Shown: positions 8,654 through 25,817 of the stretch, piece by piece
How the letters are laid out: every line of letters starts with the position of its first letter
Numbering within the stretch: position 1 is the first letter of the stretch
Source of the DNA: Candidatus Hodarchaeota archaeon
GTDB lineage: Archaea; Asgardarchaeota; Heimdallarchaeia; Hodarchaeales; Hodarchaeaceae
Assembly (NCBI GenBank): GCA_029856365.1
Contig: JAHQWW010000046.1
Location: forward strand, 1 to 25,901
Reading direction: 5' to 3'
DNA length: 25,901 nt
Notes under the pieces: model-generated
Told to the model about the DNA's origin: nothing
What the model saw: the letters and a program-made list of their open reading frames with translations, nothing else
Database searches by the model: none
Program-made: the position numbers and the translations under genes

Positions 8654-8768
8654 TATAAGAGTTTAGATATCTTTTGGTTGTAAAAGAGATTAGGATGAGT
8701 GAGAGTTCTTTATTATCCAAAAACTTAATCTAGTATTGGATAAGACTAAATCCAAACTGGTGGAAATT

Positions 8769-9257
8769 ATGGTAAAGTTGGATACTGTAAAAATTGAGAT
8801 ACCAGAAGGAATAAACATAATTTTGGGTCAAACTCACTTCATTAAAACTGTGGAAGACTTGTACGAAGCTTTATCTGAGGCCTCTGCAGGAATAAAATTT
8901 GGCCTTGCCTTTTGTGAGGCATCAGGCCCTTGTCTTGTACGACATTCGGGGAATGACCCCGAACTTGAGAAAATCGCTTCAGAGATGGCCCTGAAGATAG
9001 GAGCAGGACATACTTTCATCATTTATTTAAGAAATGCTTTCCCAGTTAACGTTTTGAAACGTGTTCAGGCTGTTTCAGAGACAGTTTCAACTTTTTGTGC
9101 CACTGCTAATCCTATGGAGGTAATTATAGCAGAATCTGATCAGGGTCGGGGCATTCTTGGCGTGATTGATGGTTTTTCTCCCAAAGGTATTGAAACGAGT
9201 GAAGATATTGAAGAACGGAAAAAGTTTTTACGGACAATAGGTTATAAAACACCGTAA
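8769..9257 (+). CDS. DUF355 / adenosine-specific kinase family protein
   Basis: NIILGQTHFIKTVEDLYE, FGLAFCEASG, IGAGHTF, FCATANP, GRGILGVIDG and FLRTIGYK. Start placed at ATG 8769 after GGTGGA; the ORF track starts at 8736. Confidence 0.92.
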   Translation: MVKLDTVKIEIPEGINIILGQTHFIKTVEDLYEALSEASAGIKFGLAFCEASGPCLVRHSGNDPELEKIASEMALKIGAGHTFIIYLRNAFPVNVLKRVQAVSETVSTFCATANPMEVIIAESDQGRGILGVIDGFSPKGIETSEDIEERKKFLRTIGYKTP

Positions 9258-22490: not shown

Positions 22491-23102
22491 ATGGTTCAAC
22501 CTCATTCCAAAAGCCCTTTATACGCTCTTAATCTCGCTCTTCAATCACCCATTATTCTCGATTTTAGCGAAAAAACGAGATTTTCTAAGTTTTCTTGTAT
22601 TCCAGGTTGTAAGAAGTGTTGTGGATACTCATATTTCCTACCTGCAGAAGTTACTAACCTCCCAAACAATATAAGAAAAGAATTAACATTGAAAGAAGAT
22701 GGAAAATACGATATATTGCGTCTAGGCGGACGATGTATATTCTACAATACTGAAAATGAATTTTTTTGCACCATCTATAATGAAAGACCTCTTCGATGTA
22801 AAATATTTCCATATTTTCCCCTAATTGTCGACCAGAGAATTGTAATTACTTTAGAACCAGCTTTAAAGATGAAAAATGAAACTACCAAAATAAAAACTTG
22901 CCCTGGAGTTGGAAAGCTTGGAGAGCCTTTGAAAAAATCTATTACATATTGTTTATCTTTTTTAGCGAAGTTAGCAGATGTTCCTGCTCTTCTTTCTACT
23001 ATCGTGATTAATAGTGAAATTTTTAATGGAATAAGGAATGATCGATGGTTTATCGAAAACTGGAACGAAAAAATGGAACACAAACCTATAGAAAAAACCT
23101 GA
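22491..23102 (+). CDS. YkgJ family cysteine-cluster (CxxCxxCC) protein
   Basis: FSCIPGCKKCCG, RCIFY, CTIYNERPLRCKIFP and CPGVG. Confidence 0.88.
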   Translation: MVQPHSKSPLYALNLALQSPIILDFSEKTRFSKFSCIPGCKKCCGYSYFLPAEVTNLPNNIRKELTLKEDGKYDILRLGGRCIFYNTENEFFCTIYNERPLRCKIFPYFPLIVDQRIVITLEPALKMKNETTKIKTCPGVGKLGEPLKKSITYCLSFLAKLADVPALLSTIVINSEIFNGIRNDRWFIENWNEKMEHKPIEKT

Positions 23103-23145: not shown

Positions 23146-23360
23146 ATGGCTAAAAAGCGTTTTCAAGATAGTGAATTATGGTTGGAGATTGATCTCGAGT
23201 TGTGTACAGGTGCAAGGGAATGCGTTGACGTTTGTCCCAAGGATTGTTATGAAATTATAGAAGGAAAAGTCACCGCTGATAACATTGGCATGTGTATCGA
23301 AAGTGCTGCTTGGATGGAGTCTGTCCAAACGATGCAATCCTTTCCCATTGTTCTTGGTGA
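23146..23360 (+). pseudogene. Frameshifted ferredoxin, tandem paralogue of 23538-23753
   Basis: Colinear with the downstream copy but 215 nt instead of 216: gct TG- gat at about 23311 versus gcc TGT gat. The shifted frame continues DGVCPNDAILSHCSW*. A ligand Cys is also changed (tgt to agt). Confidence 0.82.
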
Positions 23361-23537
23361 ATTATTACATCTTTCTTTTATCGGCTTATCTTATCCGCAG
23401 ACCTTTTTTTGAACAAATTTTTCATGAAAATGTTCCAAGGTTAAAGAAGAAAAATTATTTATTGAATGCAACTAAGCCAGTTTTTAGTCCTTAAAAATTC
23501 AATAACTATCTTAGAAACAGAATTGGAGACGGAATCA

Positions 23538-23753
23538 ATGGCTAAACAGCGTTTTGAAGACGGAGATTTGTGGGTAGAGATTGATCTCGATTTGTGTACA
23601 GGTGCAGGCGAATGTGTTGACGTCTGTCCAGAGGATGTTTATGAAATAGTCGGAGGAAAGGTTACCGTTCCTAATATAGGTGATTGCTCTGAATGTGCCG
23701 CCTGTGATGGCGTGTGCCCGAATGATGCAATCCTTGATCATTGTTCCTGGTGA
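23538..23753 (+). CDS. Small acidic dicluster ferredoxin (probable 7Fe: [3Fe-4S] plus [4Fe-4S])
   Basis: CTGAGECVDVCP and CSECAACDGVCP; ATG 23538 follows GGAG and aligns with the start of the upstream paralogue. Confidence 0.92.
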   Translation: MAKQRFEDGDLWVEIDLDLCTGAGECVDVCPEDVYEIVGGKVTVPNIGDCSECAACDGVCPNDAILDHCSW

Positions 23754-23790: not shown

Positions 23791-23928
23791 GAATATAGAT
23801 AAAAATTTCCACCCTAGGCTTTTATTCCACATAACATTTTATTCTGTAAAAGAATTGTTTATCATATTCAACTTGGTATTCCTTAATTAAGTTCAATTTT
23901 ATTAATTTAATCAAGAGGTTTTTAGAAA

Positions 23929-24585
23929 CTGCAACACAACCTAGAAGAAATAGGACGTACTCAAATAAAACGGGCCACGTTTGTTGAGGAAATAGATTAT
24001 ATTAAAAGCCCTAAGACGGTGTTAGCGGTTGCCATACATCAGAAAAAACAAGAAATCAGAGCAGGTGGGATCCTTTATGATATTGAATTCGCCAAGCAGA
24101 TAGACTCTTGGTTGGGAGAGACAATACCTGCTCCTTATCCATATATTAGCACTTATCTAACTTTGCGAAACAAGCAGCCACTTCGTCAGGTTATCAATCA
24201 ATTTCAGAGATTTGACCTTCTAATGGTAGAAGGCGCAGGAAGACAACATCCGAGATATTTTGGACTTGCTTGTGAATTGGGACTGGATCTCGACATTCCT
24301 ACTGTTGGTATTACCCAGAGGCCCTTATTAGGCGTAATTAATTTTTTGCAGCCTCTTGAAAAGAAAGATTATAATTATTATATTTTCCCTGTTTTAGATG
24401 AAGAAAATCTTATTGCTTATTTCATTAGGAAAAAAAGCAATAAAAAAGGAATATTTTTGTCAATCGGTCATAAAATTACATTACTAACCGCAGTTAACAT
24501 TATTTTACCTCTTCTTCTATTCAAACTCCCTGAACCTCTACGACTTGTCAAAATGCTACTTAAAAAATCCAATATTCCGAATTAA
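23929..24585 (+). CDS. nfi: Endonuclease V family protein, catalytically degenerate; probable CTG start
   Basis: PYPYIS wedge-like motif, LLMVEGAGRQHPRYFGLA, LDIPTVG, IFLSIGHKITL and KLPEPLRL. The frame is open back to CTG 23929 (TAG at 23923) and gives an EndoV-like N-terminal helix (LEEIGRTQIK). The ORF track starts at 24019. Confidence 0.82.
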   Translation: MQHNLEEIGRTQIKRATFVEEIDYIKSPKTVLAVAIHQKKQEIRAGGILYDIEFAKQIDSWLGETIPAPYPYISTYLTLRNKQPLRQVINQFQRFDLLMVEGAGRQHPRYFGLACELGLDLDIPTVGITQRPLLGVINFLQPLEKKDYNYYIFPVLDEENLIAYFIRKKSNKKGIFLSIGHKITLLTAVNIILPLLLFKLPEPLRLVKMLLKKSNIPN

Positions 24586-24596
24586 TATAGCTTCTT

Positions 24597-24833
24597 ATGA
24601 TTAATGTGACACTTGAATATTTATCTTGCCCTGATTGTGACAAATGCACTTCATGCCAATCGGAGCTCTTCATTTCTTATAAAACCATACGAATCCAGAG
24701 TAAATCCATTACTAACATCCCATTCACTTCCAAAAATGTGAATAATTCTTTAAATCACATTTCTACAAACTCTACTCCTCAGAAAGCCCTGCTTAAGCGC
24801 CAGATGGCTTTCAATATTCAATTTAACCTTTAA
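24597..24833 (+). CDS. Possible small Cys-rich protein
   Basis: ATG 11 nt after the EndoV stop; CPDCDKCTSC motif; the rest has no recognisable homology. Confidence 0.3.
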   Translation: MINVTLEYLSCPDCDKCTSCQSELFISYKTIRIQSKSITNIPFTSKNVNNSLNHISTNSTPQKALLKRQMAFNIQFNL

Positions 24834-24944: not shown

Positions 24945-25817
24945 ATTATTTCTATTTCACAAATTATCTATGAGATCGATACACAGCAAGGATTAGCAAA
25001 ACTTCACCATAGGACACCTGATTCGACTGGTTTCCCAGTATTATTGATCCATGGTTTTGGATCTAGTTCAGATGTTTGGTTTGCCTATAGCGACTCTCTT
25101 GGTAATTATTTCATTGACAACAAAATGGATTGCTGGGCATTAAATTTAAGTAACGCTATATCTGGGAACATCCAAATTTTAGCCCATGAGGATCTACTAA
25201 CAGCAGTTGATTTTATTTACAAGGAACGAAACCAACGAGTTCTAATTGTATCACATAGTATGGGAGGAATTATTTCACGCGTATTTACGAGCTCCCATTT
25301 TAACCATCCATATCCACTGCAGAAAATCGAACGGATGATCCAAGGGATTGTCTTACTCACGGTCCCGAATCATGGCGTTGGATCCACAGATATTTCTCGA
25401 ATTGAAGAAACAGTAAAACTGCTTCATAGCTTTATTAAAAGCGACCAAGAACCTGTAGCTGCAGATTTCGGGCTAGGATTTATCCAATTAACCCCAAAAA
25501 GCCATTTAATTACATCTTTGAATGCATCTCTTCCTTTAAATCCCAATATATCATGGTTGAACGTTGTTGGAAGCTTTGATAAAGTAGTTCCCCTTCAAAG
25601 TGCACTTTTTACCGAATCAGAGATTACTCAAATTCCTCATTTTTCTCAGCAAGAGTTTCCATGTGATCATATGGTCTATCCTTTCACTTCTACAATTTCT
25701 AAAGTAATTAAAGCAATTCCACAGTTCATTGAATCAGCAAAACACGTGCTTAAAATTTATCCCGCTATCCACAGATATCAACCTGTTGGAGATTGGATTT
25801 TAGACCAGTTAAATTAA
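24945..25817 (+). CDS. Alpha/beta hydrolase (lipase/PGAP1-like); start uncertain, possibly ATT
   Basis: PVLLIHGFG oxyanion motif, SHSMGG nucleophile elbow, LLTVPNHG, FDKVVP and CDH. The annotated TTG 25044 cuts into the PVLLIHG strand; the frame is open to 24879. Confidence 0.82.
   Translation: MISISQIIYEIDTQQGLAKLHHRTPDSTGFPVLLIHGFGSSSDVWFAYSDSLGNYFIDNKMDCWALNLSNAISGNIQILAHEDLLTAVDFIYKERNQRVLIVSHSMGGIISRVFTSSHFNHPYPLQKIERMIQGIVLLTVPNHGVGSTDISRIEETVKLLHSFIKSDQEPVAADFGLGFIQLTPKSHLITSLNASLPLNPNISWLNVVGSFDKVVPLQSALFTESEITQIPHFSQQEFPCDHMVYPFTSTISKVIKAIPQFIESAKHVLKIYPAIHRYQPVGDWILDQLN

Follow-up and report, generated by a model that had tools for sequence, protein, structure and literature searches.

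An endonuclease V homolog with a dismantled catalytic site, conserved within one genus of Hodarchaeales, as a possible non-cleaving binder of deaminated purines

Endonuclease V (EndoV, or Nfi; Pfam family PF04493; structures 2W35/2W36 and 4XPU) is used in its Ca2+-bound form to enrich inosine RNA. The metal and catalytic site of the T. maritima enzyme consists of residues D43, E89, D110, and H214; of 36 mutants, D43A, D43C, and D43H alone failed to yield an inosine-specific product (PMC3025561). The hypoxanthine pocket of this enzyme is made up of G83, L85, G111, G113, G121, and L142, and a PYIP motif serves as its strand-separating wedge (PMC4650699). The D43A protein, a lesion-recognition trap in which wedge and pocket are intact and the metal site is disabled, showed no specific cleavage (PMC3025561), yet it was crystallized on inosine DNA (2w36). 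PMC7192598 describes the role of EndoV as still debated, even for mammals. Another point of reference is provided by inactive PIWI/Argonaute proteins (e.g., A. fulgidus Ago), which are RNase H-like nucleic acid binders that have lost their catalytic carboxylates. We analyzed a window, i.e., the whole stretch of 25,901 nucleotides of DNA from a Candidatus Hodarchaeota archaeon, that encodes a catalytically dismantled EndoV (23929..24585, + strand), referred to below as the variant. Its archaeal group is placed nearest to eukaryotes by some analyses. From its sequence and modeled fold, we consider that the gene product is probably a pseudo-nuclease derived from EndoV that binds deaminated purines without cleaving and occupies the niche of EndoV, a reading to which we assign a probability of roughly 55%.

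The assignment of the variant to the EndoV family is based on several lines of evidence. It matched the PF04493 profile (Endonuclease_5) with an E value of 6.1e-33 and 114.6 bits, against a cut-off of 23.4, over profile positions 19 to 195 of 198, and it could be aligned along its entire length with the EndoV structures from E. coli (4xpu) and T. maritima (2w36). An AlphaFold2 model, generated with the clade alignment as input, had a pLDDT of 92.6 and a pTM of 0.91. Compared by Foldseek with the T. maritima EndoV-DNA complexes (2w36), this model gave a TM score of 0.86 and an rmsd of 2.1 to 2.2 Å, so that the structural comparison proposed along with the original prediction points to an intact fold. 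The best 30 PDB matches were EndoVs throughout, and PIWI domains came next with TM scores of about 0.3 to 0.46. The variant and EndoV thus belong to a common family by sequence and fold; they are of similar length, both are single-domain proteins, and they share the Tyr wedge, the HPR motif, and five of the six hypoxanthine-pocket residues. The inactive PIWI/Argonaute proteins offer an analogy, from a different family, for its possible mode of action; the variant lacks a guide strand as well as MID and PAZ domains. The variant did not reach the NCBIfam equivalog cut-offs (NF008629, 95.7 versus 230 bits; NF041102, 85 versus 300 bits), and the canonical EndoV of a sister species scored 196.7 bits with NF008629, for which the cut-off is 230. 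A role in anti-phage defense was considered and rejected, as neither the variant nor the small open reading frame (ORF) downstream of it matched any of the PADLOC models.

To define the relatives of the variant, we used a word-indexed search, which returned 32 sequences from metagenome-assembled genomes (MAGs) named Hodarchaeota, Hodarchaeales, Heimdallarchaeota, or Promethearchaeota by their sources, and a profile search of 1.84 billion representatives, in which members of the clade scored 150 to 267 bits and ordinary EndoVs at most 137 bits. The clade comprises about 35 proteins from MAGs labeled Hodarchaeales or Heimdallarchaeota and from unlabeled metagenome contigs. In a maximum-likelihood tree these proteins grouped together (SH-aLRT, 99) at the end of a long stem (0.74), apart from canonical EndoV; their sister group is not formed by the canonical EndoVs of their own genus.

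Residue equivalences were read from the HMMER alignment to T. maritima 2w36, and they bear out the list of substitutions given in the original prediction, namely, D43, E89, D110, K139, and H214 changed to A, N, E, Q, and K. The metal ligand D43 is replaced by A36 (24031..24033, +), the E89-G90 pair by N82-K83 (24169..24174, +; N82 codon 24169-24171), D110 by E102 (24229..24231, +), K139 by Q131 (24316..24318, +), and H214 by K209 (24550..24552, +); the metal and catalytic residues D43/E89/D110/H214 of EndoV thus stand against A/N/E/K in the variant. The same note had stated that every catalytic residue was replaced. All five positions do differ, but the D110-to-E102 change is conservative, and the replacement of K139 by Q is peculiar to the subgroup of the window, most clade members having K or R at this position. 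The substitutions are shared across the clade, as had been suggested for verification, with the consensus [A/T/S]-N-E-[K/Q/R]-K in about 35 proteins, compared to D-E-D-K-[H/D] in canonical representatives. Individually, N82 was present in 29 of 35 members, K83 in 34, E102 in 30, and Lys at position 209 in 32 (Arg in the other 3). The D43 column holds a variable small residue (A/T/S/G), as is expected for a site without a role. A subclade nested within the variant clade (support, 97) reads [S/T/Y]-Y-P-K-[K/R], with P at the position of E102, and carries no carboxylate at any ligand site; genome G005, in which the gene occupies the same locus, belongs to it. Conserved residues specific to the clade are N82, K83, E102, A104, Q107 (35/35), T130, A164, G175, and K209. 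The possibility that alternative acidic residues fill the site had been named as an argument against loss of function; at the sequence level, E102 was the only clade-specific conserved acidic residue in the 35 sequences. Compared to the D43A protein, a laboratory construct with a single change, the variant has four to five natural replacements and a site lined by Lys/Asn, a state that has been fixed and selected in a lineage.

The wedge and most of the pocket are retained. The wedge reads PYIS (24139..24150, +) and contains Y73, which was the same residue in all 35 variants and all 141 canonical EndoVs; its last Pro is replaced by Ser in 24 of the 35 variants. The core of the hypoxanthine pocket is formed by GAGRQHPR (24232..24255, +), in which, by alignment, G103 and G105 correspond to G111 and G113, H108 to H116, and R110 to R118, and in which A104 and Q107 are clade-specific. 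As noted from the sequence at the outset, the wedge, the GAGRQHPRYFGLA stretch (24232 onward), and the SIGH and LPEP motifs were located in a frame that is open from 23926 to 24585. Of the pocket residues, L78, G103, G105, G113, and L134 are identical to those of T. maritima, and the G83 position is T, S, or G; within the clade, L78, G105, G113, and L134 are invariant, and G103 is 94% conserved. The residues conserved to at least 80% in both the variant (35) and the canonical (141) sequences are Q13, Y73, L78, R81, D97, G103, G105, H108, P109, R110, G113, A115, G119, G128, L134, G136, S179, G181, H182, and PEP202-204. By alignment to 2w36, this shared set covers the wedge Tyr, the equivalents of L85, G111, G113, G121, and L142, as well as H116 and R118, and Y73, L78, R81, G103, G105, H108, P109, R110, G113, G128, L134, and G136 are predicted binding residues. 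Unlike canonical EndoV, the variant has a pocket rim with A104, Q107, and T130. These invariant, clade-specific rim changes, together with the replacement of G83 by T, S, or G, mean that the ligand may not be hypoxanthine.

The 5' end of the gene is unusual. The open frame extends from 23926 to 24585 (+), with a Lys codon at 23926 as residue 1, and an in-frame TAG (23923..23925, +) shuts it upstream. We found no in-frame ATG, GTG, or TTG upstream of the GTG at 24019, where the public gene call P0001 (188 amino acids) begins, within strand 1. The gene very probably spans 23929-24585 (+; 218 codons, CTG to TAA) and is initiated at the CTG at 23929..23931, judging from the following observations: (i) the CTG is aligned with Met1 of full-length homologs; (ii) a Shine-Dalgarno-like motif, GAGGT (23914..23918, +), is located 10 nt 5' of it; (iii) the start column is CTG in 7 of the 15 variant-bearing species (G000, the genome of the window, and G007, G008, G011, G012, G015, and G021) and ATG or TTG in the remaining variant genes of the genus; (iv) each of the CTG species has an in-frame stop 0 to 2 codons 5' of the CTG and a GGAGG-, GAGGT-, or AGGAG-like motif 8 to 12 nt 5' of it; and (v) constraint is evident in the 29-codon stretch from the CTG to GTG 24019, with a pN of 0.131 versus a pS of 0.324 against the nearest relative. 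Two of the CTG species lack any canonical start across the first ~60 codons. The conserved CTG start suggests that the protein is kept at a low level, and it is of minor interest for translation initiation in Asgard archaea. The alpha/beta hydrolase gene downstream (24948-25817, +) is also without a canonical start. Its orthologs begin with M-S-I-K/R in G002, G003, G018, G010, and G019, and the aligned start position is Ile in the genome of the window (ATT) and in G004, G007, G009, G011, G012, and G014, with a stop codon a few codons upstream in the Ile-start genomes. With CTG in one gene and ATT in the other, these are therefore two neighboring genes with near-cognate starts that are conserved across species.

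When a score above 240 bits against the clade profile was used to call the variant in 300 Asgard genomes, it was confined to the GTDB genus of the window. In this genus, 15 genomes had only the variant, 6 had only a canonical EndoV (G002, G003, G004, G013, G018, and G020), none had both, and one partial genome of 1.4 Mb had neither. MAGs are incomplete (83.6% completeness for G000 and 74% for G004), and the variant-only genomes include G007, which is 99% complete, and G009, a single 4.9-Mb contig that is 96% complete. The search for a second, active nfi that had been recommended returned none in G000, where the variant was the single PF04493 match, and none in G009, where it is the sole EndoV homolog. 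To look for remnants of a canonical nfi in G000, we ran tblastn (E ≤ 1) with six canonical EndoVs from the genus as queries; the search matched the variant alone, and the G000 locus syntenic to the nfi of G002 contained no nfi trace. The canonical EndoV of the genus (D-E-D-K-[D/H]) is found at a locus other than that of the variant, which usually lies between one or more ferredoxin genes and the alpha/beta hydrolase gene. In G002, G003, and G018, the ferredoxin-hydrolase gap is about 170 bp and harbors no variant. In G004, a variant-sized segment is gone, and the downstream spacer and small ORF are kept; no protein-level trace of a variant relic was detected in this gap, and the DNA match to G019 was limited to the flanks and the downstream spacer. 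In a species tree that was based on RpoB alone and built with a quick search, the canonical-bearing genomes fell in two separate places, the G002 group being sister to the variant-bearing G005 (94) and G004 being sister to the variant-bearing G019 (99). The canonical genes also differ in affinity, those of the G002 type grouping with one Heimdall family (98) and that of G004 with another (90). The G004 nfi contig looks native, having 32% GC and neighbors that are 59 to 61% identical to their G000 orthologs. Either the variant was present in the ancestor of most of the genus and gave way to canonical EndoV at least twice, or two ancestral paralogs were sorted reciprocally; the estimate of at least two independent swaps is derived from the positions in the RpoB tree and the syntenic deletions. 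As related genomes are not independent, we count events (at least two) and not genomes.

The surroundings of the variant show both stable and variable features. Upstream of it are two tandem 4Fe-4S ferredoxin genes (23146-23412 and 23466-23753, +). Relatives match the upstream copy over about 55 residues, followed by unrelated sequence, and this copy looks like a decaying duplicate, as judged from these matches. Relatives have one or two ferredoxin copies, and in G014 and G017 the pair lies in the reverse orientation with respect to the variant. A CxxCxxCC gene (PF03692, YkgJ-like; 22491-23102, +) precedes the ferredoxin gene or genes in G004, G005, G007, G010, G012, G019, and G021 and is part of a stable synteny block that frames the site of variant insertion or deletion. 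A functional link between the variant and the ferredoxin was rejected, since the ferredoxin-hydrolase adjacency survives without the variant and the ferredoxin orientation varies. On the 3' side, 12 nt after the variant stop, is a small zinc-ribbon ORF (CPDC...KCxxC; 24597..24833, +), which in the window has a 16-residue internal deletion and for which no Pfam family scored above cut-off. An intact copy lies 3' of the variant in 8 of the 15 variant-bearing genomes, and in G001 and G016 the variant and Zn-ribbon genes occur as a pair in a different genomic context. The gene is absent from G005, G011, G012, and G015, decayed in G007 and G019, and internally deleted in the window copy, and G004 retains it without the variant. 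Across the order (24 genomes), it was restricted to the position of the variant locus, apart from a marginal match in G009 (E, 0.004), and only 12 relatives were found among 5.8 billion proteins. The predicted complex of the G009 variant with the Zn-ribbon protein scored 0.53, compared to 0.47 for the control, and is not counted as evidence for or against an interaction. Since 7 of the 15 variant genomes have no copy of the gene or a decayed one, and since it survives in G004 without the variant, it is not obligatory; on the basis of gene neighborhoods, it is possibly a linked but dispensable accessory.

No repair or RNA metabolism gene was linked to the variant. It had been left open whether an adenosine-derivative deaminase and a DUF355 gene in the window are related to it. 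These genes are an amidohydrolase (PF01979; 966-2384, +), which is possibly such a deaminase, and a PF04008 "adenosine specific kinase," the former DUF355 (8736-9254, +). Peptidase, PadR, RDD, ABC/FtsX, lipid, and CoA-metabolism genes lie between the two and between them and the variant, and the link was rejected because they are located more than 14 kb away from the variant behind unrelated genes. In the G000 MAG, in which only 32 tRNAs were found, the aragorn intron mode called tRNA-Pyl(CTA) (C32:26888-26997), tRNA-Leu(AAG) (C81:46213-46369), and tRNA-Asp(ATC) (C142:30329-30436), which have odd intron positions and are probably mis-modeled intron-bearing tRNAs. The Leu(AAG) and Asp(ATC) calls, whose A34 might have hinted at I34 editing, have odd introns and poor arms and were discarded as not credible.

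We considered several explanations for these data. One of them, a decaying pseudogene in which an inactive nfi without its ATG is subject to neutral drift, could appeal to a 5' end devoid of ATG, GTG, and TTG and to a called product that begins inside strand 1. This reading is already contradicted by the data, and we regard it as highly improbable. The dN/dS ratio of the variant, calculated by the Nei-Gojobori method for pairs with unsaturated dS, was 0.10 to 0.28, well below 1, as would be expected if the clade is functional; for the nearest pair (G000/G007; 81% identical), a pN of 0.098 and a pS of 0.432 gave an omega of about 0.16. The canonical EndoV of sister species had values of 0.14 to 0.28, and purifying selection on the variant is therefore as strong as that on the active enzyme. 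In addition, all 15 genomic copies have open frames, 26 columns are invariant over 29 variant sequences, and the CTG is kept in seven species together with its Shine-Dalgarno-like motif and the constrained codons up to GTG 24019.

Three functions were considered for the conserved protein. According to the reading that we prefer, that of a non-cleaving binder, the variant would still flip and hold deaminated purines, either deoxyinosine in DNA or inosine in RNA, and the Lys/Asn-lined former metal site (N82, K83, K/Q131, and K209) would grip the phosphate backbone without metal and without cutting. Bound tightly, the protein may mark or shield the lesion, e.g., for another nuclease, for polymerase stalling, or for RNA protection, and where an active EndoV is present, the two would compete for identical sites; we propose that lineages hold either the variant or canonical EndoV because a binder would shield the sites of the enzyme. 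The main rival is a rebuilt inosine-directed nuclease that replaces canonical EndoV, using either a metal held by E102 and waters or a metal-independent Lys/His chemistry via the RNA 2'-OH. The strict either/or distribution and the two independent swaps suggest functional equivalence, and the mutual exclusion fits equally well with a variant that carries out repair by other chemistry. The conservative E102, kept in most of the clade, counts against a binder, as do the changed pocket rim and the lack of a linked repair or RNA metabolism gene; a K or R at position 209 in all members and a selection equal to that on an enzyme would also suit a nuclease. We nevertheless judge it unlikely, since the first-strand Asp is the single residue without which T. 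maritima EndoV showed no specific cleavage at all (PMC3025561) and this position is a variable A/T/S/G here, since the nested Y-P subclade has lost E102 as well, and since no other conserved acidic residue has arisen. Similarly improbable in our estimation is that the scaffold has been re-used, with hypoxanthine no longer the target, for another modified or damaged base or as a non-catalytic subunit acting with the Zn-ribbon protein or another factor. The invariant A104 and Q107 (35/35) and T130, which flank the pocket, a changed loop at 164-175, and the lineage-restricted Zn-ribbon gene that accompanies the variant into another context in G001 and G016 would agree with this idea. The backbone-forming glycines of the pocket do not vary, however, nor do L78, L134, or the wedge Tyr; this and the patchy retention of the Zn-ribbon gene described above argue against the idea. 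A more specific form of the binder reading is put forward tentatively: the variant may be a dedicated, metal-independent inosine/hypoxanthine reader that is functionally incompatible with active EndoV because it would cap the sites of cleavage, such that lineages toggle between cutting and binding as responses to deaminated adenine, with the Zn-ribbon protein as an optional adaptor.

A literature search that covered few subscription journals turned up no account of a naturally inactive EndoV clade and none of EndoV in Hodarchaeales or Heimdallarchaeia. The present data add the confinement of the variant to a single genus, the two independent swaps together with their syntenic deletions, a subclade free of carboxylates, the dN/dS equal to that of the active enzyme, the conserved CTG start, and the Zn-ribbon companion. 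NCBI-derived names label the variant proteins "endonuclease V," and roughly two thirds of the genomes in the genus would therefore be assigned deamination repair in error. If binding without cutting holds true, the consequences would be the following. (i) The variant would be a natural counterpart of the D43A- or Ca2+-based capture of inosine nucleic acids and could serve as a reagent. (ii) The repeated either/or exchange would be a clean evolutionary handle on the role of EndoV in archaea. (iii) The variant would be another case of an RNase H-fold nuclease turned reader. Should the more specific, metal-independent reader be confirmed, it would be the first natural inosine-binding pseudo-nuclease.

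Several other EndoVs with altered sites were observed. L021 (G035:C275:3585-4181, - strand), from a member of the Heimdallarchaeia that belongs to another family, reads K-E-N-Q-K at the five catalytic positions and is located inside the canonical EndoV clade; it is apparently an independent, second dismantled EndoV site. At least 24 of the 141 canonical-like EndoV representatives (P0041-P0181) have N in the D110 column (e.g., D-E-N-K-H), which may reflect natural D110N forms or alignment shifts. Finally, P0039, a protein of 1285 amino acids in the representative library, contains three tandem EndoV domains (PF04493; 366.8 bits in 3 stretches) and a Gln-rich tail, and none of the three domains retains the wedge Tyr, which is I, S, or L instead, or D110, which reads H or Y.
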